DNA of 11,595 bases, from positions 1-11,595 of the IMG/VR virus record IMGVR_UViG_2579778753_000002, one strand, 5' to 3'. Positions 1-11,195 of this stretch are shown piece by piece. Made by a program: the position numbers and the translations under genes. Under the pieces are notes generated by a model. It was not told the origin of the DNA, ran no database searches, and saw only the letters and a program-made list of their open reading frames with translations. The DNA comes from a virus. Lineage: Duplodnaviria > Heunggongvirae > Uroviricota > Caudoviricetes. Numbering within the stretch: position 1 is the stretch's first letter; the number at the start of each line of letters is the position of its first letter.

Positions 1-95
1 AGTTTGCTCCTGCCATAACGTGAAGAAGCAATGACCTGGTGGTCCGTGACTTCCCTACGCTGGCATTATCCAGATCAGGTGATACGGGTATTTCT
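1..95 (-). promoter_or_regulatory. thiM: 3' portion of the thiM TPP riboswitch / thiM 5' leader (thi-box 3' helices, P1 3' strand, SD), cut off from its 5' half by the island
   Basis: Reverse complement of 1-95 reads AGAAATACCCGTATCACCTGATCTGGATAATGCCAGCGTAGGGAAGTCACGGACCACCAGGTCATTGCTTCTTCACGTTATGGCAGGAGCAAACT. I recognise this from memory as the 3' two-thirds of the E. coli thiM thi-box leader ending at the SD (GGAG at 6-9, minus). The thiM ATG would lie immediately left of position 1, outside the window. Confidence 0.85.
82..95. repeat. att core / target-site direct repeat, left copy (ATACGGGTATTTCT)
   Basis: Exact 14-bp direct repeat with 11182-11195. Each copy is joined to one half of the thiM riboswitch sequence on its outer side and to island sequence on its inner side. 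Confidence 0.8.
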
Positions 96-675: not shown

Positions 676-963
676 TTACCGCCGTAAGTGCTCCGGCTTC
701 CTCCACTGGTAAGTATTTTTCGCGCTCTCCCTCCGTTGTTGAGAACGGCGACGGTATGCCAGCAACTCAAGAACTCTGGTTCGTATGTTGCGCATATCCA
801 CGCCGTTAAGCTCAATACCGTCACGGCGCATTACCTCAGCCACCACACGCGCGTAATTTTCAGCGGTGACTGTATCCGGCTGCGCGGCCTGTTCGTCAGC
901 CAACTGGCTGATTCCACCAGCACAGCGGATTAATCGCAGTATTTCAGATTCGGTCATTATCAT
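676..963 (-). CDS. Hypothetical protein, 95 aa, Arg-rich basic C-terminus; translationally coupled to the upstream TerS-like gene
   Basis: ATG at 963-961 overlaps the TGA of the preceding ORF (ATGA overlap at 960-963). Ends in a basic tail (RRRSQQRRESAKNTYQWRKPEHLRR). No family recognised. Confidence 0.55.
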   Translation of the reverse strand: MIMTESEILRLIRCAGGISQLADEQAAQPDTVTAENYARVVAEVMRRDGIELNGVDMRNIRTRVLELLAYRRRSQQRRESAKNTYQWRKPEHLRR

Positions 964-1445
964 GCCTGTTTTGCGACCTCATTCACTACGTCATTTTTTA
1001 CCATCCGGCTGATAATCTGATTACGCAAATCGTCAATAATTGACTGCACTCTGTTTACTGCCATCGGTTTAAGCCCGGCATCACGTGCCAGAATATTGGG
1101 GAGTTTTGCCAGTTCCTCGCTTACGATTTCCCCCCATATAGCCATCTCTTTTCGCACATCATCGGCGGGTATGAGTTGCGCCGTTTCCTGTTCGAACCTG
1201 AGGCGCTCACGTTCGGACTGATACCAGGCCTTACGGTCATGTGGCTCCATTTCTTCCAGTGATGCCGGAACGGGAAGATCAAGAAAACAGGTCAGAATGT
1301 CAGTCACCCGATAGAGTTTTAGCTTGTCATGCCCTCCGGCTGGCTGGATGTTTTTCAGCCTTGCCGCCGCAGTCTGACGACATATTCCCGCTATCGCCGC
1401 CAGTTGATTAATGTTCAGCATCAGATTTTTCAGTTCTCGATCCAT
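960..1445 (-). CDS. Nu1-like small terminase-type HTH protein (candidate satellite TerS or Rpp-like packaging-redirection protein), about 161 aa
   Basis: The ORF-track start at 1532 is a TTG. I prefer the ATG at 1445-1443, preceded by GGAG. The N-terminus (MDRELKNLMLNINQLAAIAGICRQTAAARLKN...LYRVTDIL) has the layout of the lambda Nu1 winged-HTH DNA-binding domain, followed by a predicted helical region. Confidence 0.6.
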   Translation of the reverse strand: MDRELKNLMLNINQLAAIAGICRQTAAARLKNIQPAGGHDKLKLYRVTDILTCFLDLPVPASLEEMEPHDRKAWYQSERERLRFEQETAQLIPADDVRKEMAIWGEIVSEELAKLPNILARDAGLKPMAVNRVQSIIDDLRNQIISRMVKNDVVNEVAKQA

Positions 1446-1716
1446 ACCCGCTCCAGAATGTTTTAAACATGCATCTTGCGAACAACTTTCAGAAGAGGTC
1501 AAAAAATGCGCTATATGTTGAGCATAAAACAAGCAAAATTAACATGCCAAAAATAAAAATACTTAAAATTCAATACAATAGAAAGATGATGATGACGAAT
1601 GAAAATGCAAAAACTAGCCTTTTTCCGCGCCGCTCCCGCCCCGTGGCAGGCCACCTCACCGGGAGGACCCACCCAAAAAAGGCGACTGTCACTATTGTTT
1701 ATGCTCCATGAGCGAC

Positions 1717-1738
1717 AAAACCGCCCGCAGGCGGTTTT
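1717..1738 (-). terminator. Rho-independent terminator (usable in both directions) after the gpI-like gene
   Basis: AAAA-CCGCC-cgca-GGCGG-TTTT, 18 nt downstream of the gpI-like stop (1756). Confidence 0.7.
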
Positions 1739-1755
1739 ACATAAAACGTTTTGTA

Positions 1756-2397
1756 TCAGCGACCAATCACCACAATCTGGCCGCCATCCCCTTCATCTGC
1801 TGTGCTGATCTCTTGCGAAATCACCCGCGACCCGACGCGCATTTCACCGTACAGAACAGGCACAACATTGCCCTGGGCAACCATGTTATCCAGAGAGGAG
1901 AAATAGGTGTTCTGCTTACCGTTATCCGTGGTGCTGGCTGTTGCTGTGCTGGCTTTCGGTGCCAGCATCTGTGCAACACCACCAAGTGTCATCGCCGCCC
2001 CCATTGAAAAGAGAATGTCACTGAAAGCGATACTGATTCCTGGCATCCAGATTGCCGTAGCAATCAGCGCCGCACCAAGCACCGCCTGAAACACGCCGCC
2101 ACTTTTGGCACCAGCCAGACGCGGTACGATGTGGATCACGGCACCATTTTCCAGCGGTTCATTAAGACGGGCTGATAATTCGTTTTCGCCTGTATCACGC
2201 CCGGCAATACGCACCTGATACCAACCATCGCTCAGTTTCTGACGAAACGCTGGGATCTGCATGGCCAGCGCCCGGATGGCTTCGGCCCCCGTTTTCACAT
2301 GAAGATCGATGCGGCGGCCAAATCGTTGTAAATCCCCGTAAAGGCAGATGCGTGCCATGCCCGGTGACGCCAGAGGGAGTGTGTGCGTCGCTGCCAT
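1756..2397 (-). CDS. Lambda gpI-like tail tip assembly protein, 213 aa
   Basis: ATG start with an AGAGAGG RBS. The protein (MAATHTLPLASPGMARICLYGDLQRFGRRIDL...ADEGDGGQIVVIGR) matches my recollection of lambda tail assembly protein I almost end to end, with a shorter Gly/Ala-rich central region. Recalled, not searched. Confidence 0.65.
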   Translation of the reverse strand: MAATHTLPLASPGMARICLYGDLQRFGRRIDLHVKTGAEAIRALAMQIPAFRQKLSDGWYQVRIAGRDTGENELSARLNEPLENGAVIHIVPRLAGAKSGGVFQAVLGAALIATAIWMPGISIAFSDILFSMGAAMTLGGVAQMLAPKASTATASTTDNGKQNTYFSSLDNMVAQGNVVPVLYGEMRVGSRVISQEISTADEGDGGQIVVIGR

Positions 2398-2486
2398 TTG
2401 TCGGTATACCTCTCTCGTTTGCTCAGTTGTTCAGGAATATGGTGCGGCAGCTCGCCGCCCCACGTGTTCAAAGTACCGCCTTGTTG

Positions 2487-4400
2487 TCATGCTCCATTCG
2501 ATTTCAGCAATCCACGATAATCGAGGGCCGCGACACCTGCATCTATGCGCACCTTCCAGGCGACACCATCAACAGTAAAGCCCACCTGCTCCTCAAGATA
2601 TGGCGTATCCATACCATCAAGATAAGCGACTTCTATTGTGTCCATCCCCTTAGCTGCGGCTACATACCATTCCTTGCTATTGGCCTTATCAAGACGTGGC
2701 TCAACAATTACTTCTGCCATATCTTTCACAACGTTAATGATGCCGGGGTTCTGATTGATAGTACCCTCATCACCAACCGGAAAGACTGATGACGATGACA
2801 GAATGGCGCGACGCGCGGCAGATTCCAGCGCGGCAGGGACCAGAACAAAAGCAGGGGTAATATTCAGTGAGTCGCCGTTAGCATCCTCCTGGAGGCGCAT
2901 CAGCTTACGGGCTTCATCAAGCCCCACCATGTCCATATCCTTCGCAATAAGATTTTTATGATCGGCATGGAATAACGCTTTACCATCCGTAAACTTGCCG
3001 TTGCTGGTTAACAGGAGATAAACCAGATTGCCAACTGTTCTGGCGGCTGCGCGTCCCATCGCCATGGGGATTGTAGTTAACTGGGTCAGGTCATCGTTGA
3101 TAATGGCCTGACGGGTAACGGAAAAAATATTCCCGTACGTGGCCAGCGCAATAGGTACACCTTTATCGCTGGTGGTGATGTATTTATATTCCGCACCTTC
3201 CGGTACTTTATCCAGCTTTGAAAAACCATTCAGACCAACGCGCTTTGCTTCATGAAAGTTTGAAAGCGAACCGGTACGCGTCCATTTCTGGAACGTTTCG
3301 CCGCTGTCCTGCCAGCCTTTCAGTACAGATTTTTCAGCCCCACCAGCCAGAATATGAGAAAAATCACTGCTGCTGTGTGTAAAAGCCGCATTAACAACCT
3401 GCGAGCGATTAATAAAACCACTCACAGTGATACCACGATCAACCAGTGATGCCTGGGCCATTTCAAAAAGGCTCATCATCGCGTAAGGGTTGCCTCGTTC
3501 AGGGCGTTCATACCCAAGACGGGAATAAAGCCCCTGACGAATTGCATCACCTGTTATGTTTCCGTTTCCGGCATAGATATGAGGCGGAGTATTTTTATTG
3601 GATGGCGTGGACTCGCGCCCCAGCTCGTTCAACAGCTTTTCACGGGCCATTTCCGGTGTACATGATGCATCTTCCAGACACGCCATTTTGATCCCGTCGT
3701 AACGACTGCCGAACAGGCTAAACACTTCACTTATTCCATTGATGCGCTTCTGTTCATTACCAGCAATATTTGCCGCTCCCTGTGGCGGTGTAATCATTCC
3801 TTTAATGGTTTCCGGCATATGTAAAAAATCTCCTGTGCGCTTCGATTCAATTCGCGCCATTGCTCTGACGGATGGCAACAATTCATCAGCAAAACCGTGC
3901 TTAAGGCATTCTTTCCCGTCCATCCAGGTTTCATCTTCCAGCATGGCGGTAATTTCCTGTGCTGATTTGCCCGTTTTTCTGGCATAAGCAGGGACTAACA
4001 CGGTTTCCACCTTATCCAGCAAATCAGCATAATCACGCATATCACCAGCATTTCCGCCAGAGATACCCCACGGCTTATGTATCATCATCATGGCGTTTTC
4101 CGGCATCACAACACGATCGCCAGCCATTGCGACCACCGAAGCCATTGAAGCCGCAACACCATCGATATAAACCGTAATGTCTGCCGGATGATTCCGTAGC
4201 AGGTTATAGATGGCGATGCCTTCAAACACATCACCACCTGGTGAATGGATCCTCAGATTGATATGTGAAACATCGCCAAGGGCTTTCAGGTCTTCCGCGA
4301 ACTGCTTTGCAGTAACACCGAAGCCGCCAATCTCCTCATAGATAGATATATCCGCCGCTCCGCGAACATCCGCCGCCTTAATGGTGTACCAGCGATTCAT
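2487..4400 (-). CDS. Fusion of ClpP/S14-type prohead protease (N-terminal), linker/scaffold-like segment and HK97-fold major capsid protein (C-terminal), 637 aa
   Basis: N-terminus has ClpP-like motifs (HSPGGDVFEGIAIYN, GVAASMASVVAMAGD, MMMIHKPWG). The C-terminal 350 aa or so looks like a phage major capsid protein (ITPAFVLVPAALESAARRAI..., FTVDGVAWKVRIDAGVAALDYRG). ATG start with a GGGGGAA RBS. Long ORF with no internal stops. Confidence 0.85.
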   Translation of the reverse strand: MNRWYTIKAADVRGAADISIYEEIGGFGVTAKQFAEDLKALGDVSHINLRIHSPGGDVFEGIAIYNLLRNHPADITVYIDGVAASMASVVAMAGDRVVMPENAMMMIHKPWGISGGNAGDMRDYADLLDKVETVLVPAYARKTGKSAQEITAMLEDETWMDGKECLKHGFADELLPSVRAMARIESKRTGDFLHMPETIKGMITPPQGAANIAGNEQKRINGISEVFSLFGSRYDGIKMACLEDASCTPEMAREKLLNELGRESTPSNKNTPPHIYAGNGNITGDAIRQGLYSRLGYERPERGNPYAMMSLFEMAQASLVDRGITVSGFINRSQVVNAAFTHSSSDFSHILAGGAEKSVLKGWQDSGETFQKWTRTGSLSNFHEAKRVGLNGFSKLDKVPEGAEYKYITTSDKGVPIALATYGNIFSVTRQAIINDDLTQLTTIPMAMGRAAARTVGNLVYLLLTSNGKFTDGKALFHADHKNLIAKDMDMVGLDEARKLMRLQEDANGDSLNITPAFVLVPAALESAARRAILSSSSVFPVGDEGTINQNPGIINVVKDMAEVIVEPRLDKANSKEWYVAAAKGMDTIEVAYLDGMDTPYLEEQVGFTVDGVAWKVRIDAGVAALDYRGLLKSNGA

Positions 4401-4606
4401 TGTTCCCCCACCGATGCAAAACCATTCTGATTAAGCCAGGTGTTTACGGCATGTCTGACAATCTGCGCCACACCTGGTAATGGTTGGTCAGGATGATGAT
4501 TTATATGGTCGATCCTGTACTGCTTAAGGCGCATAACGGTCTGCGCATCCAGATGAACGGAACCACCTCTGGTATCACCTGTATTCAGGTCATTAATACA
4601 ACTCAC
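4397..4606 (-). CDS. Hypothetical small protein (69 aa), translationally coupled to the protease-capsid gene
   Basis: GTG start at 4606 preceded by AGAGGAAG. Its TGA overlaps the ATG of the capsid gene (ATGA at 4397-4400). Confidence 0.5.
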   Translation of the reverse strand: MSCINDLNTGDTRGGSVHLDAQTVMRLKQYRIDHINHHPDQPLPGVAQIVRHAVNTWLNQNGFASVGEQ

Positions 4607-4708
4607 AGCAACTTCCTCTGACTGACTAAACTATGCACATTATTGATCGATAAAAGTGGTAAATAAACATGTTTCTATCATAAAAACAGATTAATTAGAT
4701 TCAGACAC

Positions 4709-4731
4709 AAAAAAGCCGGATTTCTCCGGCT
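4709..4731 (-). terminator. Rho-independent terminator ending the replication operon / ori region
   Basis: On the minus strand: AGCCGGA-gaaa-TCCGGCT followed by TTTTTTG. Confidence 0.65.
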
Positions 4732-4867
4732 TCTGTCACTCGTTGCTTAAAACGGTATGTTATCCCCGTACGGATCATCATTCCCCGCCTGTTGTTTTGG
4801 TGTGCTTCGCTGTCATAGGCTTTATCTCACAGCAGTAAATTAAAATTTTTGCGTTTTAACCCTTCAC

Positions 4868-5090
4868 CTGTTCACCTTTTGATATTTTCTCTTTTAATTC
4901 ATAATGTTAAGGGGTGAACAGTTTCAAAAAAACTATTCACCAACTGTTCACCACTGTTCACCCTTGAAGCTCAATAAACAATCAAAAAGGTGAACAGTGA
5001 ATAGTTTGGTGAACAGTTCATAAATAACTGTTCACCCTATAATATACTGATATAAAAGATATTTATGACAGGGTGAACAGTGGTGAACAG
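4868..5090. repeat. Iteron array (at least 9 copies of GGTGAACAG / CTGTTCACC in both orientations) with an AT-rich stretch: candidate P4-type origin of replication
   Basis: Direct copies at 4913, 4989, 5009, 5072, 5082. Inverted copies at 4868, 4944, 4954, 5029. Degenerate copies at 4933 and 4997. AT-rich 5041-5069. Sits immediately 3' of the alpha-like gene. The motif contains TGTTCACC, which I recall as the P4 alpha-binding type I iteron. Confidence 0.75.
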
Positions 5091-5103
5091 TTATTCCATA
5101 AGT

Positions 5104-6921
5104 TTAATTTTTGCTATCGTCATTAGTGACCGATACACATGATGGCATCCAGTCTTCTGATTCCTCCGTCAGTGTCACGTTTGAACGCAAACCGTGCTTC
5201 GTTTTCCGTTTCATATACTCCCTGCCATATTCCGCCATTGCCCCCGGCATATCTTTACCGAAGCGCGTCAGTGTTACAGGTTTACCAAACCCATGTGCCC
5301 TCATATAAGCCAGATAGGCATGATAGAGATACCTGCGTGGGCTGAATGGCACAATTTCAGCATTACCCACTAACAGGCCATCACACATTACCGACGCCAT
5401 GAGATAGCCGCAGAAGTCCACCAGCGAATCCCCCTCTCGCTTTATCGCCAGTGCTTCTTCTGATTTCTGCTGCTCATATAACAGGCGTCTGGCTTCGTCC
5501 TGGTCAGCAAACCGTGTAAGCAGATGGCGAATCACTACCGCCAGCTCACCTTCTATTTTTTCCGCCAGCATTGGATCACGTTCGTTCTCCGGTACAACTT
5601 CCGAAAAATTGAATATCACCCGACGACGTGAGATCCCCCCGCTGCGGTCACTGAATGACATGGCGTTATTGTTAACCGCCAGCACTACTGCCGGAATACG
5701 CGTTGAGTAGGGGGCTTTGTGTTTCGGGTCAATTGCCACCTTGTCACCGCCTGTAATAGCCTTAATCCCTGCCCCATCACCAGCGTAGCGGGTCATATCC
5801 GGCATGATAATCAGCGAAAAGCCAACCACTAACGCGCGTTCCCTTGCATCTTCCAGCGCCTTCATGCTTGCCGATACTGTGTTGGCCTTACCCGCCAGCA
5901 TGGTGCAAATCTCCGCCATCACGCTTTTACCACTTCCCCCTGGACCTGTTACCTCAATGAATAACTGCCAGTCGTACCGGTTCGCCAGCACCATGAATAA
6001 TGCAGCCAGTACGCGATCCGCCTTGCGGTCATTCTCAGCCACCGAACGGCGTAACCACTTCCAGAAATTCGGCGCATGTGTTGCCAGCATTTCCCCCTCT
6101 GCTGGTGGGCTGAAAGGTAATTCACTGGCAATTAACAACCAGTCGTTTTTGTTATGCTCCCGAAAATTACCTGTTCTGGTATCAAATACCCCGTTACTGA
6201 ATCCAATCAGGTTACGGGCTGTATTCCCCATTACAGGCAAACTTAACTTCATGGTATCGACCGCCGATTTAATGGCGTTCTGCGAATAGCTGATCTCCGC
6301 ATCAATGAAAATCTGCGCCATAGCTCGCTGTAATTCTTTATCCTGTACTGGCTCCCATACAACGCCGTTGTAATGGTGAACAGTGTCAGAGTCAGCATGA
6401 ATCGCCAGTTCACCGCCATAATGTGCCAGGAGAACTTCGCCGCGTTGACTTGCTCCCATCTGGTTAAGCGCCAGTGATGAAGCGTTATCGTCTTTTACCC
6501 GCTCTTTTTTCTTTACAGGCAGTTCAACTACCTTTTTCTTTTCCTCCAGCTCTGCCCGTTCACGTTCCAGATATTCGCGCCAGTTCTCCCGTTTCTGGCT
6601 GTGCATTCCTTCAGGGTAATAATCAGCATCCCTGACACCTGCCGCTGCCAGTTTCTGCCCGATGGTATTAACAAGCCCCGGACGCAATAACCCCGCCTGA
6701 TAGAGACGCACGCGATAGCGTCCGTCCGGTACGATTTGCAGGTTGTCCAGTTCGGCAAGTTGTTGCTCTCCAAGCCAGACAGGAGGCACGTTATCGCCAG
6801 CCAGTCGCCCGTCCTGTTCCTGCCACTGCTTCGCATGTGCCCACGCATTACTACCCGCAAAAATGATGACTTCCGTCATTTTGTCACGCGGCTGGTGTTT
6901 TAAATTTGGCGCTTTTTTCAT
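5104..6921 (-). CDS. P4 alpha-like replication protein (D5_N-type domain plus SF3 helicase with Walker A GPGGSGKS; phage/plasmid primase P4-family C-terminal region)
   Basis: About 605 aa from the ATG at 6921 (GGAG RBS); the ORF track extends to a GTG at 6936. Walker A VTGPGGSGKS, Walker B-like LVVGFSLIIMPD. Adjacent to the iteron array. Confidence 0.85.
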   Translation of the reverse strand: MKKAPNLKHQPRDKMTEVIIFAGSNAWAHAKQWQEQDGRLAGDNVPPVWLGEQQLAELDNLQIVPDGRYRVRLYQAGLLRPGLVNTIGQKLAAAGVRDADYYPEGMHSQKRENWREYLERERAELEEKKKVVELPVKKKERVKDDNASSLALNQMGASQRGEVLLAHYGGELAIHADSDTVHHYNGVVWEPVQDKELQRAMAQIFIDAEISYSQNAIKSAVDTMKLSLPVMGNTARNLIGFSNGVFDTRTGNFREHNKNDWLLIASELPFSPPAEGEMLATHAPNFWKWLRRSVAENDRKADRVLAALFMVLANRYDWQLFIEVTGPGGSGKSVMAEICTMLAGKANTVSASMKALEDARERALVVGFSLIIMPDMTRYAGDGAGIKAITGGDKVAIDPKHKAPYSTRIPAVVLAVNNNAMSFSDRSGGISRRRVIFNFSEVVPENERDPMLAEKIEGELAVVIRHLLTRFADQDEARRLLYEQQKSEEALAIKREGDSLVDFCGYLMASVMCDGLLVGNAEIVPFSPRRYLYHAYLAYMRAHGFGKPVTLTRFGKDMPGAMAEYGREYMKRKTKHGLRSNVTLTEESEDWMPSCVSVTNDDSKN

Positions 6922-7217
6922 TTCTGCTCTCTCCACGCGGCAATCATGTTTTTCAGTTCCTGTAGTTTTTTATCAACATCCATACATGACACATGGTTAT
7001 TTCTGGAAGGCGGGATTTCCCGCCGGAATCTGCAAATAAAGATCTCCACGTTCAGCGAACTATGAAATGAATAGCCATCACGAATAAAATACACACGGTC
7101 AAACATCAGTTCTTTTACCGTTACTCTGTTACCGTTCTTATCCAGATAAATAGCGCCGGGGATAATTTTGGGGTGTGCATAACCGCTGGCAGTCAAGCCA
7201 GATATATATGTTCTCAT
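6918..7217 (-). CDS. Hypothetical protein (99 aa), translationally coupled to the alpha-like gene
   Basis: ATG start. Its TGA overlaps the ATG of the alpha-like gene (ATGA at 6918-6921). No family recognised. Confidence 0.55.
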   Translation of the reverse strand: MRTYISGLTASGYAHPKIIPGAIYLDKNGNRVTVKELMFDRVYFIRDGYSFHSSLNVEIFICRFRREIPPSRNNHVSCMDVDKKLQELKNMIAAWREQK

Positions 7218-7223
7218 GATTAT

Positions 7224-7544
7224 TTATCCCCGATTTGAATCAGTATTCGCTTTCTTTATGGCATTTAATGCATCTGTGGCATTTTCAATGGTGCACCGTA
7301 ACGAAATATCAAACTGCCCAAGCATTGCCAGTAACAAACCGATATTACCCATATCAATGCGCATGGCCTTTTCGTCATAGTCCTCATTTTCTGACGCATG
7401 CCACATCAGGCTACCAATTGACGCAATACCCATTGATATATTGTCAGTAGCCCCATCCGCAGCGGAATAAACCTTTTTAGCAATATCATGCTCACAGTTA
7501 AAATGCGGATTAATCAGGTACTGGTAATTGGTCATGTCAGGCAT
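7224..7544 (-). CDS. Hypothetical acidic protein (106 aa)
   Basis: ATG at 7544 preceded by AGGGGGGG. Ends 7 nt before the next gene in the same operon. No family recognised. Confidence 0.55.
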   Translation of the reverse strand: MPDMTNYQYLINPHFNCEHDIAKKVYSAADGATDNISMGIASIGSLMWHASENEDYDEKAMRIDMGNIGLLLAMLGQFDISLRCTIENATDALNAIKKANTDSNRG

Positions 7545-7740
7545 GGCACCCCCCCTGACGAATACGGGCGGCGAATACCATCACGCAGCCAGCCGGGGAT
7601 TGCTGGCGTGCTTCCTGTTCGCTGGTGGCCACGATGGTAATCACGCGCGGTTGTGCCGTGCTCAGGGCGATAAAACGCCAGATGTATTTATTCAGGTTGT
7701 GCGAGTCCCGCCCTTGCGGGTGTGTGGTATGATTTCTCAT
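7537..7740 (-). CDS. Possible small protein (67 aa), first gene of the replication operon
   Basis: ATG at 7740 with GAGG 7 nt upstream. Its stop overlaps the 106-aa start by 8 nt (ATGCCTGA). It is the C-terminal segment of a long, otherwise implausible 362-aa ORF. Confidence 0.35.
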   Translation of the reverse strand: MRNHTTHPQGRDSHNLNKYIWRFIALSTAQPRVITIVATSEQEARQQSPAGCVMVFAARIRQGGCHA

Positions 7741-7838
7741 AGCTGCCTCGATAATCTTGCTATCGTTGGTGGTTAGAAGCCCCGTTACTGCTCCTACAGT
7801 GCGGGGTTTCGTCGTTTCTGCACCTTGCATTAACAAGG

Positions 7839-7916
7839 TGTAAGTAACTTTATTTATAGGTGGCTTACATGTCAATGCTTTTATGTAAGACTTTTTATGT
7901 GTATATTGTCTTACAC
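7839..7916. promoter_or_regulatory. Divergent promoter/operator region with four GTAAG/CTTAC half-sites
   Basis: Half-sites at 7840, 7864, 7885, 7910, including CTTACAT-N12-ATGTAAG. Minus-strand promoter candidate: -35 TTGACA (7875-7870), 17-bp spacer, -10 TAAAGT (7852-7847). Plus-strand candidate -10 TATATT (7902-7907). Confidence 0.45.
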
Positions 7917-7936
7917 TTTCATTGAGAGGATTACAG

Positions 7937-8242
7937 ATGGCTACAGGTTCAAAAAACGCAAAATCACAATCACTGACAGCTCGGATCCCGCATGATGTTA
8001 TTGAAGGCATGGAATCCGTAAAACTGGACGGTGAAAGCAACGCCGGATTCATAGTAACCGCCATGCGCGGTGAAATCGCCCGCCGCCAGGCAGAAGGAAG
8101 CGGAGAAAACCTCCTGGTTTCTTCGCTCGATGCCCTAGCGCAGGTGGAAAAAATCGGAGTCAAAGCCGCCGAGGAGATCGGGCAACTCGTCACCGTCGCG
8201 CGTGAAGAACTCCAGCGACGCAAGGTCAAAGAGCAGGAATAG
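7937..8242 (+). CDS. Ribbon-helix-helix-like putative DNA-binding regulator (101 aa)
   Basis: ATG at 7937 with GAGAGGA 6 nt upstream (the ORF track's 7922 start is a TTG). N-terminal beta-strand-plus-helix pattern (SLTARIPHDVIEGMESVKL). Transcribed opposite to the rest of the island. Confidence 0.55.
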   Translation: MATGSKNAKSQSLTARIPHDVIEGMESVKLDGESNAGFIVTAMRGEIARRQAEGSGENLLVSSLDALAQVEKIGVKAAEEIGQLVTVAREELQRRKVKEQE

Positions 8243-8299
8243 CCACTATCAGCGCCATAGTTTGAGGAACGCAGGCGCATTGCTTTACAGGACAGCACC

Positions 8300-8479
8300 A
8301 TGAGCGACACAGAATCAACCAAAACACCATCACCAACTCGTAAGAGACGACGCAAAAATATAGCGCATGAACATGAATCAGAAAGATTCGCACCTTGTTC
8401 GTTTGCTCTTGAGAAATTCCTTAAAGAGCACAGGAAAAAGCTCTCGTTGCAAACCTTGGAACGAACCAAATCTGACTGA
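8300..8479 (+). CDS. Possible small basic protein (59 aa), downstream of the RHH-like gene
   Basis: ATG at 8300, in-frame TGA at 8477-8479, just below the 60-aa track cutoff. Lys/Arg-rich N-terminus (TRKRRRKNIAHEHE). Followed by a strong terminator. Confidence 0.35.
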   Translation: MSDTESTKTPSPTRKRRRKNIAHEHESERFAPCSFALEKFLKEHRKKLSLQTLERTKSD

Positions 8480-8546
8480 TCACATTGCCCACCAGCCGCA
8501 AATGTGGCATTGTTGGCGATGCGTTCAAGTTTAGTGTGTATCCATT

Positions 8547-8575
8547 GGCGACCGCCCCCGGTCGCCTTTGTTTTA
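8547..8575 (+). terminator. Rho-independent terminator of the rightward RHH-like operon
   Basis: GGCGACCG-cccc-CGGTCGCC (8-bp perfect stem) followed by TTTGTTTTAT. Confidence 0.8.
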
Positions 8576-8593
8576 TATGTCATATGCTCCCCT

Positions 8594-8818
8594 TTACGCT
8601 GCCTTACCTGAATTAACGCGGTCACGGCTTTGCACCCAGTCCATAACTTCGGAAAGCAACCAGCCTACAGAACGCCCCCCAAGATTACGGCGAGACGGAA
8701 AGCCCCCTTTCTTCTCCAGTTCGTAGCGTGTAGTACGGCTGACGCCTGTTAACTTACGACATTCATCCTCACGAATTACGCGATCTGTTAGTGATTGAAA
8801 TTGTGTATTTTGATTCAT
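8594..8818 (-). CDS. alpA: AlpA-family prophage transcriptional regulator (74 aa)
   Basis: ATG with GAGGGTG RBS. HTH region (CRKLTGVSRTTRYELEKKGGFPSRRNLGGRSVGW) matches the AlpA/MerR-like fold found next to P4-type integrases. Confidence 0.85.
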   Translation of the reverse strand: MNQNTQFQSLTDRVIREDECRKLTGVSRTTRYELEKKGGFPSRRNLGGRSVGWLLSEVMDWVQSRDRVNSGKAA

Positions 8819-8921: not shown

Positions 8922-9776
8922 TTAATTTTCATTAGATAACATTTTTCTTATTTTTTCTAAAGAATCGCTGCGCATTATTTTTTCTAAGAAGGGTTTTACA
9001 GTCTGAGCAATAGCAAAGGTGTCCTTTTCACCATCAGGATACAAAGATACGGCAAGCACCCCTAATGAAATTTTTCTATCTGTAGACAACTCCCAAGATA
9101 ATAAGTCAATTAATGGGATTATCTTATAATCAATAATTTTACGTCGTATGCTCTCCCAACTTCCTGCAATTGGTTTGTCTGGCTCAACAATTGAAAGTTC
9201 ACTACGCCATTTTGGTAATAGTTTTGTAAACGCTTCAATCAACTCATCATCTCTGTTATGTAGTAAGTCAACAGAAACAAGCATATTATCTAATGTATCA
9301 GAAAGGAGATTCACTGGTTCACGCATCACAGCCCAAAACATCCCATTATCTTCTGATATTAAACTTCCAACCATCTCATTATCTATGATGATTGGTTTAT
9401 CCTTCCAATATCCTCTTTCCGCAGTCAGTTTATTAATCATTGATATATCAAACCTTGTTACAGGTTTAATTCCATCATCATAACTTAGCTCAATTAACTT
9501 CGGTTGCACTTTATGGTCATATTCTTTTTGTTTATCACAAAACCAATCGTCTTCTTTCAGCTCTCCAAATGGATCCCCGTAATTATTATGCAACGGGTAT
9601 TCAGCACCAAACATAAATCCATATTCAGGCATCTCAGAATGTTTCATCGTTAAATCATCTTGTCGCCAATATAATTGGCGAAATAGATCTTTATCCGACA
9701 AGTTTTCTAGGCAATCATATTTGCCTAAATCAAATGACTTTGGTAAATCTTTTTTACTATTTACTTTTTTCGTCAT
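8922..9776 (-). CDS. Hypothetical protein (284 aa), AT-rich cargo gene between int and alpA
   Basis: Uninterrupted 855-nt ORF. Its ATG overlaps the int TGA (ATGA at 9773-9776). Visibly more AT-rich than the flanking int and alpA. No recognisable catalytic motif. Confidence 0.75.
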   Translation of the reverse strand: MTKKVNSKKDLPKSFDLGKYDCLENLSDKDLFRQLYWRQDDLTMKHSEMPEYGFMFGAEYPLHNNYGDPFGELKEDDWFCDKQKEYDHKVQPKLIELSYDDGIKPVTRFDISMINKLTAERGYWKDKPIIIDNEMVGSLISEDNGMFWAVMREPVNLLSDTLDNMLVSVDLLHNRDDELIEAFTKLLPKWRSELSIVEPDKPIAGSWESIRRKIIDYKIIPLIDLLSWELSTDRKISLGVLAVSLYPDGEKDTFAIAQTVKPFLEKIMRSDSLEKIRKMLSNEN

Positions 9777-10993
9777 TGTATCCCTCTCAATATCACAATA
9801 TTTTCATTATATCCTGCAATCATATCAAGACGCTCAACCCATAGATTCAGTGCGTCCCGTTTCGCCTGCAAATAGCGTGAATGGTTATAGGTTTTTTGCT
9901 GACCTGGCATCTGATGCGCTGTGATGTGCTCCACGATATGCGGATCGACACCTAAATCATTCAGCATAGTTGTAAACGTGTGTCGGAAATCATGCAGCGT
10001 CCAGTGTTCCTGCTTAAGCCGCTTATGCGCATTTCGTCCATATTGCGCCACCGTGGTATCTTTTTTCAGTTCGCCGAGTAATAACCCAGTGTGTGCGTTT
10101 TGCTCCACCAGCTTCTGAATGAACGGCAAAATACCATCAGGAATAGGTCGGAATATTGTTACCTTCGTTTTGCTGTGCTCTTTTGGCACTGTCCACAACA
10201 TTTCTTTCAGATCCCATTCTTTGATCTCTGAAAGTCTGATCTCTGCCGTTCTGCACCCGAACACAATTAACAAGCGCATTAACGCACTGTAATAGGGAGC
10301 GAACACATCACCATCAATAGCGCGTAGAATTTCTTTTAGTTCGCTGTTGCTGTGCACTCTCTCGCGGATTTCTGCTCTCTTACCCACATCAGTAACGATC
10401 AAATCGTCCAGGGCGTTGCTAAACGCGTAGCGCCGCCTGCGGCAAAACTTTAGCGCCTGTTTGCATGTCTGCATGACATGGCCCGCTGCTACTGGTGCTT
10501 TTTTTCGTACGCGGTCAAAACATGCGATCCACTGCCTTGTATCACACTTATCAAGGGGAATTGCCCCAATATGGCAAATGATGTGCTTATCCATACGCTG
10601 CACCAGCTTTATGTAATCTTTGCGGTTATCCTTCGCGTATTCCTCCAGCCAGTAGTTAATCGCTTCCTTCACCGTAACGGGTTTTAGTGCTTCCTGTACT
10701 GTGGCGCACAACTCATAACGGGGGTTTTTACCCTCAGCCAGCCATGCCCGGCACAGTGTGCGTTTTTCCCTTGCGGCTTTCAGCGACAATTCAGGGTAAG
10801 CCCCCAGCTTTAACCGCTCTGCGGCAACCTCACGGCCTCCCGTTCGGTACCGGAAATACCAGGTTAATTTGCCGCCCTTTGAGTGTTTAATCTCCAGCCC
10901 GCCCCCGTCGGAGTAAAAACGCTCTTTTTCTGCCTGGACAGCCGCCAATTTTTTTAACGTCGAATCGCTCAGTTTGTTTAGTGCTTTTCCCAC
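9773..10993 (-). CDS. int: P4-family tyrosine integrase (406 aa)
   Basis: GTG start with GAGGA RBS. N-terminal arm-binding-type region (GGLEIKHSKGGKLTWYFRYR...GAYPELSLKAAREKR). C-terminal catalytic region with HDFRHTF and a downstream Tyr. Adjacent to the att site. Confidence 0.9.
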   Translation of the reverse strand: MGKALNKLSDSTLKKLAAVQAEKERFYSDGGGLEIKHSKGGKLTWYFRYRTGGREVAAERLKLGAYPELSLKAAREKRTLCRAWLAEGKNPRYELCATVQEALKPVTVKEAINYWLEEYAKDNRKDYIKLVQRMDKHIICHIGAIPLDKCDTRQWIACFDRVRKKAPVAAGHVMQTCKQALKFCRRRRYAFSNALDDLIVTDVGKRAEIRERVHSNSELKEILRAIDGDVFAPYYSALMRLLIVFGCRTAEIRLSEIKEWDLKEMLWTVPKEHSKTKVTIFRPIPDGILPFIQKLVEQNAHTGLLLGELKKDTTVAQYGRNAHKRLKQEHWTLHDFRHTFTTMLNDLGVDPHIVEHITAHQMPGQQKTYNHSRYLQAKRDALNLWVERLDMIAGYNENIVILRGIQ

Positions 10994-11181: not shown

Positions 11182-11195
11182 ATACGGGTATTTCT
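11182..11195. repeat. att core / target-site direct repeat, right copy
   Basis: Identical to 82-95. Confidence 0.8.

Follow-up and report, generated by a model that had tools for sequence, protein, structure and literature searches.

A probable iteron-type replication origin adjoining the rep gene of an integrated EcCI224-type PICI

The window, by which we mean the whole stretch of 11,595 nucleotides analysed here, carries att cores at positions 82–95 and 11182–11195 and thus contains an entire 11.1-kb island, located between thiM and rcnR. Its gene content comprises int, a DUF6387 gene, alpA, an Icd-like gene, a DUF4222 gene, rep, a putative origin, a ClpP/capsid fusion, a tail-assembly I gene and a TerS-like DUF1441 gene. 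The main features of the island are as follows.

82..95, minus strand: att core AGAAATACCCGTAT at the int-distal island end, as in Table S1 of PMC6092414
960..1532: DUF1441/TerS-like gene
1756..2397: homologue of the lambda tail-assembly I gene, beside a tail-protein remnant annotated as partial by RefSeq in strain 751
2487..4400: ClpP-protease/major-capsid fusion
4711..4734, minus strand: intrinsic-terminator-like hairpin ending the rep operon
4861..5090: iteron array, the putative origin
5104..6921, minus strand: rep (Pri-Rep, 605 aa, ATG at 6921; identified with Pfam; the mechanical ORF begins with GTG at 6936)
8594..8818, minus strand: alpA, AlpA-family regulator (Pfam PF05930)
9773..10993, minus strand: int, tyrosine integrase (Pfam)
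11182..11195, minus strand: att core AGAAATACCCGTAT at the int-proximal island end, as in Table S1 of PMC6092414

The window shares 98.8% identity with the segment of E. coli Ecol_224 whose coordinates are listed for the PICI EcCI224, which was catalogued in 2018 by Fillol-Salom et al. (Table S1) with the att core AGAAATACCCGTAT and the site frmR-thiM (PMC6092414), and both the core and the site of the island match those published for EcCI224. Three features by which a PICI is recognized are found here: an island in the range of about 8–12 kb with a specific att core at a non-prophage site; int, alpA and rep, all on the minus strand, followed by an origin directly 3' of rep; and two sets of iterons with AT-rich sequence, arranged collinearly with the ori of EcCICFT073. 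In EcCICFT073, AlpA is the activator of the PICI cycle (PMC6092414), and helper-phage-dependent induction, replication and packaging have been demonstrated for this element and a few others only (PMC6092414).

The first-pass annotation had taken the element for a functional, autonomously replicating satellite, by implication of the P4 type, rather than a decayed remnant, and we compared its gene content with the definition of P4-like satellites published by Moura de Sousa and Rocha in 2021 (PMC8628076). The markers of such satellites present in the island are the integrase, AlpA (PF05930) and the alpha marker PF03288 only. Psu (PF07455), Delta (PF04606) and Ash/epsilon (PF10554) gave zero matches among the 18 larger or annotated ORFs scanned, and no sid candidate is apparent among the morphogenesis genes, which are those for the capsid/protease, tail I and the TerS-like protein. 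Nor is there a homologue of Cnr, the copy-number control protein of P4; a pair of small ORFs precedes rep, one of them with the 106 aa of P4 Cnr, and neither resembles Cnr. With these three domains and Cnr all missing, the island falls outside the published definition of a P4-like satellite. On sequence grounds, the element is a PICI of the EcCI224 type and not a P4-like satellite. The impression of an intact element was well founded, given that the 12 iteron slots are in place, along with int, alpA, an att core at either end and a rep of full length, but its placement among P4-type satellites was not.

Two regions of the island deserve description in their own right. The morphogenesis region (960–4606) looks mosaic; it contains neither a portal nor a large terminase gene, and the window lacks a lambda-type cosN of the kind seen in EcCICFT073. 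The region 7537–8625 is spanned by a mechanical ORF of 362 aa, in which similarity to a known family (Icd-like, or the 'transcriptional repressor' PHROG) is confined to the C-terminal ~90 aa. This region varies among relatives, in which the short Icd-like gene alone is annotated, and some carry a HEPN-domain gene there.

The domain organization of Rep was defined by Pfam as an N-terminal domain of ~130 aa, D5_N, an SF3 helicase (DUF5906) and a C-terminal Pox_D5 winged-helix origin-binding domain. The parts of the protein that bear on origin recognition map as follows.

5143..5433, minus strand: winged-helix origin-binding domain, Rep residues 497–593; phmmer match to PDB 1KA8, E = 1.8e-24
5167..5223, minus strand: wing segment REYMKRKTKHGLRSNVTLT, Rep residues 567–585, which co-varies with the iteron across relatives

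From residue ~126 onward, Rep shares 49% identity with residues 301–771 of P4 alpha, including the GPGGSGKS Walker A motif, and its last ~100 residues match the origin-binding domain of P4 alpha, for which a crystal structure is available (PDB 1KA8). The earlier designation of the gene as alpha-like is borne out by this homology over the helicase and the origin-binding domain. In contrast to alpha, Rep lacks the N-terminal zinc-finger/TOPRIM primase domain with its EGYATA motif, and a fold comparison of the Rep N-terminal domain returned TOPRIM-like matches that were weak only. Rep is 49% identical to the Pri-Rep of EcCICFT073 over its full length, including the N-terminal domain, and 86% identical to the Pri-Rep of EcCIRM13514. 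We interpret Rep as an SF3 helicase with an origin-binding domain that is probably cognate to the type I iteron next to its gene. It should be noted that residue 25 (codon 6847–6849, minus strand) is Asn in this Rep and Asp in EcCI224, in strain 751 and in 24 of 24 homologues of the alignment. The substitution affects a nearly invariant acidic residue of the N-terminal domain and might impair the Rep of this copy.

The first iteron is found 13 nt from the rep stop codon (5104–5106, minus strand). The first-pass annotation had reported at least nine copies of the repeat in both orientations, and the number of exact 9-mers within 4868–5090 is indeed nine, five on the plus strand and four on the minus strand. 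Together with three degenerate copies, they make up 12 iteron slots in 4861–5090, with the following positions.

4913, 4989, 5008, 5072 and 5082, plus strand: exact iterons GGTGAACAG, five copies
4868, 4944, 4954 and 5028, minus strand: exact iterons, CTGTTCACC as read on the plus strand, four copies
4861..4868: degenerate iteron CCTTCACC
4933..4941: degenerate iteron CTATTCACC
4996..5004: degenerate iteron AGTGAATAG

When one mismatch was allowed, the iteron matched 14 times in the whole window against 2.2 expected, a count reached in none of 200 shuffles. Across 11 PICI-type relatives with the same iteron class (class A, below), the six-base iteron cores are conserved at 88%, compared with 54% for the other columns of the ori (p = 2e-12). 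An Rfam search of the window at gathering thresholds returned zero matches.

Only one further exact iteron occurs in the 11.6-kb window, at 6375. This copy (6375–6383) lies inside rep with an inverted partner carrying one mismatch (6406–6414), and we considered the pair as an internal or autoregulatory site. It is probably a chance occurrence, as it is found only in the lineage of the window and strain 751 and is absent from the other class A loci. A second iteron cluster, as would be expected of a P4-like bipartite origin, was found neither in the window nor in vB_KppS-Ant or EcCICFT073, each of which has a single cluster.

The array as a whole forms an imperfect dyad of two modules, each with six iteron slots and one AT-rich tract.

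4861..5090: whole iteron origin, centre near 4975; defined by inverted repeats, the layout map and the alignment of relatives
4861..4962, plus strand: module A (rep-distal), collinear with the reverse complement of P4 ori1 (X51522 9310–9413) and matching P4 ori1 in blastn
4877..4912: AT-rich tract 1, 36 nt, 81% AT, candidate DNA-unwinding element
4963..4988: central spacer between the modules, 26 nt, 73% AT
4989..5090, minus strand: module B (rep-adjacent), defined by alignment and the layout map
5037..5071: AT-rich tract 2, 35 nt, 80% AT, candidate DNA-unwinding element

In the minus-strand direction away from the rep stop codon, module B consists of two direct iterons, the 35-nt AT tract, an inverted iteron, 11 nt and three direct iterons (one of them degenerate), and it is followed by the 26-nt spacer and then by the mirror image. 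Module A accordingly has the order CCTTCACC-TGTTCACC, 36-nt AT tract, GGTGAACAG, 11 nt, CTATTCACC, CTGTTCACC, CTGTTCACC. The AT content of the window overall is 53%. The AT-richness noted in the first reading of the locus is thus real, although it resides in two tracts rather than in a single segment. From the coordinates, neighbouring iterons are spaced by 9–11 bp, inverted pairs by 20 bp and iterons across the AT tracts by 44–45 bp, indicating that most sites lie approximately whole helical turns apart.

A motif of AT tract 1 is common to the spacers of P4 ori1, P4 crr and EcCICFT073. The tracts have more in common than their AT content: in the window (4877–4912 and 5037–5071), as in L002 (9361–9395) and L004 (~7030–7065), positions around TTTTAATTCAG...TTAA are shared with P4 ori1, P4 crr and EcCICFT073, and these conserved positions may represent a start signal for melting or priming. 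Beyond the last iteron, an AT-rich block of ~30 nt (4830–4860; AAATTAAAATTTTTGCGTTTTAACCC on the plus strand) is kept in class A PICI-type relatives of several genera.

The rep operon ends at a terminator-like hairpin (4711–4734, minus strand; AGAAGCCGGAGAAATCCGGCTTTT and TTGTGTCTGA), the only one of its kind. The repeats had been described as bounded by a terminator, which is only loosely right: the hairpin exists, but it is separated by 126 nt from the last iteron slot (4861) and by 133 nt from the last exact iteron (4868). Because the hairpin lies beyond the repeats, the rep transcript would read through the iterons before termination. A similar hairpin with a T-run occurs at the equivalent relative place in vB_KppS-Ant (L001, ~4430–4460).

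The comparison with P4 is instructive at several levels. P4 alpha binds the type I iteron, and the minimal origin ori1, as reportedly delimited by Tocchetti et al. in 1999, comprises six type I iterons and 35 bp of AT-rich sequence within 123 bp. The GenBank record of P4 (X51522) labels the 8-mers of ori and those of crr alike 'ori type 1 repeat', so that the identification of TGTTCACC as the P4 type I iteron in the first-pass annotation is correct. The iteron of the island (GGTGAACAG / TGTTCACC) is identical to that of ori1, and both modules align column by column with the ori1 core (X51522 9310–9413) as well as with the left half of the EcCICFT073 origin, with the same order, spacing and AT tract per module. 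The initiators of the two elements are homologous in the SF3 helicase and the winged-helix origin-binding domain.

The differences from P4 concern the arrangement of these parts. The P4 origin is bipartite, with ori1 and crr (the cis replication region) 4.7 kb apart, whereas the island has, in the manner of PICIs, a single site with two ori1-like modules fused head to head. According to the GenBank annotation, the cluster directly 3' of alpha in P4 is crr, a cis-acting site, and initiation takes place at ori1, away from alpha, whereas the putative origin of the island adjoins rep. Like crr, the array of the island lies directly 3' of the initiator gene, is built of iterons of this family placed in both orientations and has a two-module structure, and the first ~70 nt of its modules also align with each crr repeat. 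However, crr consists of two direct 120-bp repeats located 60 bp apart, has degenerate iterons and is not the initiation site, whereas the modules of the island are inverted, adjacent and ori1-like. In addition, P4 has a terminator between alpha and crr, whereas that of the island is located past the repeats. The site shares iteron specificity, module design and initiator domains with P4 but is not a P4 replicon.

The site belongs with the origins of the Gram-negative PICIs EcCICFT073, EcCIRM13514 and EcCI224, with which it shares the position directly 3' of pri-rep, the architecture of Rep and the iteron dyad around AT tracts. EcCI224 is the same type of element at the same att site, and only one or two bases distinguish the ori of the window from its counterparts in EcCI224 and strain 751. 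In EcCIRM13514, whose Pri-Rep is one of four allelic variants compared in PMC6092414, the Pri-Rep gene is followed by the same TGTTCACC origin as in the window. Nothing essential separates these origins from that of the window. The ori of EcCICFT073 has the same layout with another iteron, CTGTCTACC as opposed to CTGTTCACC in the window; its rep-ori module maintains a plasmid in a manner dependent on both rep and ori (PMC6092414). What sets the window copy apart from the other Gram-negative PICIs is the D25N substitution in Rep. A further known origin system, compared at the level of design rather than sequence, is similar in general design and position (PMC6092414); its initiator sequence and iterons are unrelated.

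Outside the bacterial satellites, parallels in design are found in the virus origins served by SF3 helicases, such as SV40 large T antigen and papillomavirus E1. These origins likewise consist of an inverted array of short sites bound by the helicase's own origin-binding domain and flanked by easily melted tracts, an arrangement that would suit the head-to-head loading of two rings. The likeness is a mechanistic analogy only, there is no relationship between the origin sequences, and double-hexamer loading is hypothetical for P4 alpha and PICI Rep.

Iterons and initiators were then compared across Enterobacterales. A scan of one genome per species yielded 80 related loci, all of which (80/80) have repeated 7–8-mers within 350 nt 3' of the rep stop codon; 77 of them fall clearly into an iteron class. 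P4, vB_KppS-Ant, EcCICFT073 and strain 751, analysed alongside, likewise carry repeats 3' of rep and are classifiable, and together with the window they bring the number of classified loci to 82. At least four iteron classes were distinguished, and the dyad layout is kept across them.

Class A: iteron TGTTCACC; 65 loci, including P4 and full-length alpha genes of Xenorhabdus and Photorhabdus; wing KRKTKHGLRSN
Class B: iteron TGTCTACC; 7 loci; wing KRKQCTRGTISN
Class C: iteron GTCTCCAC; 6 loci; wing IRKKSTKGMRSN
Class D: iteron TGTCCGCC / TGTCCACC (TGTCCRCC); 4 loci; wing KKAESKKKIQSN

The iteron class is tracked by the wing segment (residues 567–585) and residue 541 of the origin-binding domain. 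The overall identity of the origin-binding domain was also considered as a predictor of class and was rejected, since P4 is 45% identical and belongs to the same class, whereas one locus (L008) is 67% identical and belongs to a different one. Two Kluyvera loci provide the sharpest contrast: between K. ascorbata (L005) and K. georgiana (L013), the helicase cores are 98% identical whereas the wings share 42% identity, and the iterons are TGTTCACC and TGTCTACC, respectively. The pair evidently represents a natural swap of specificity, in which the wing and the origin would have been exchanged together. The co-variation of iteron and wing supports direct recognition of the iteron by the origin-binding domain.

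Of 5426 complete E. coli genomes, 594 (~11%) contain the 271-bp ori (window 4840–5110) irrespective of identity, and 567 contain it at an identity of at least 95%. It occurs at up to six places per genome and twice on plasmids, indicating that the same rep-ori module resides in islands at several att sites. This distribution fits a spreading, selected module.

Taken together, the repeats, their layout, their conservation and the homology of the adjacent gene agree with the initial proposal of an iteron-type origin next to the gene of its expected binder, and we consider it very likely that 4861–5090 is the replication origin of the integrated EcCI224-type PICI. Origins of this kind have been described before, as have the island and the Rep variant. 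From the same evidence we infer that this copy of the island is competent for replication.

Two other functions could be assigned to the repeats. Given that the cluster directly 3' of alpha in P4 is crr, with initiation at ori1, and that the first ~70 nt of each crr repeat align with the modules of the window, the array could be a cis-acting helper site of the crr kind, with initiation elsewhere in the island, for example at an iteron-free site such as P4 ori2. This is improbable: the 11.1-kb island has no second iteron cluster, the extra copy at 6375 being lineage-specific, the modules fit the full six-iteron arrangement of ori1 better than that of crr, and the homologous rep of EcCICFT073 together with its 3' region alone supports replication (PMC6092414). 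Still less probable, in our estimation, is that the repeats serve as operators with no origin function, either for autoregulation of rep or for control of the downstream capsid/protease operon. Such a role would be in keeping with a rep transcript that crosses the repeats before the terminator at 4711–4734 and with the start of the next operon ~260 nt away, but no sigma-70-like promoter was found in 4380–5300, and two 35-nt AT tracts combined with helically phased iterons constitute the layout of P4 ori1 and of the tested PICI ori. Regulation and origin function are, moreover, compatible with each other.

A different kind of doubt concerns the copy rather than the site. The array could be a true ori that survives here as a relic in an island that is replication-dead or decaying, as the D25N substitution at a nearly invariant Rep residue and the mosaic morphogenesis region (a capsid/protease fusion, tail I beside a remnant and a TerS-like gene, with no portal or large terminase) might indicate. 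We regard decay as rather unlikely, since the island retains its full set of 12 iteron slots, an att core at either end, intact int and alpA genes and a full-length rep, and its ori is only one or two bases away from those of EcCI224 and strain 751. An impaired copy is in any case compatible with the assignment of this DNA as a replication origin.

With 4861–5090 as the origin, replication of the island could proceed along the following path. A helper phage would turn on AlpA and the rightward operon, so that the island makes Rep, whose C-terminal winged-helix domain would recognize the iteron CTGTTCACC. Rep assembled on the two mirror-image six-iteron modules may then melt the AT tracts of 35–36 nt, and the dyad would allow helicase rings to be loaded in opposite directions. 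Loading of the rings would lead to bidirectional replication of the excised circle, which would later be packaged by the helper phage.

The island thus appears to carry both the cis and the trans parts of a working replicon, and its placement as a PICI rather than a P4-type element changes which helper phages and which mechanisms of hijacking are to be expected. The wing changes with the iteron in what looks like a simple specificity code, and natural swaps of the Kluyvera kind could serve as a guide in designing orthogonal satellite replicons. The P4-type iteron specificity is common to two satellite families, and the ori is present in ~11% of complete E. coli genomes, which makes cross-talk between the families a testable question. 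Because the iteron is identical, the origin-binding domains are homologous and the initiator is the helicase itself, it is possible, and we offer this tentatively, that P4 and the PICI lineage cross-fire or compete at each other's origins in a shared cell, with alpha acting on the PICI ori and Rep on ori1 or crr. If true, such cross-talk would link two satellites whose helper phages differ, and the iteron/wing classes would define incompatibility or insulation groups, evolving through joint swaps of wing and ori.
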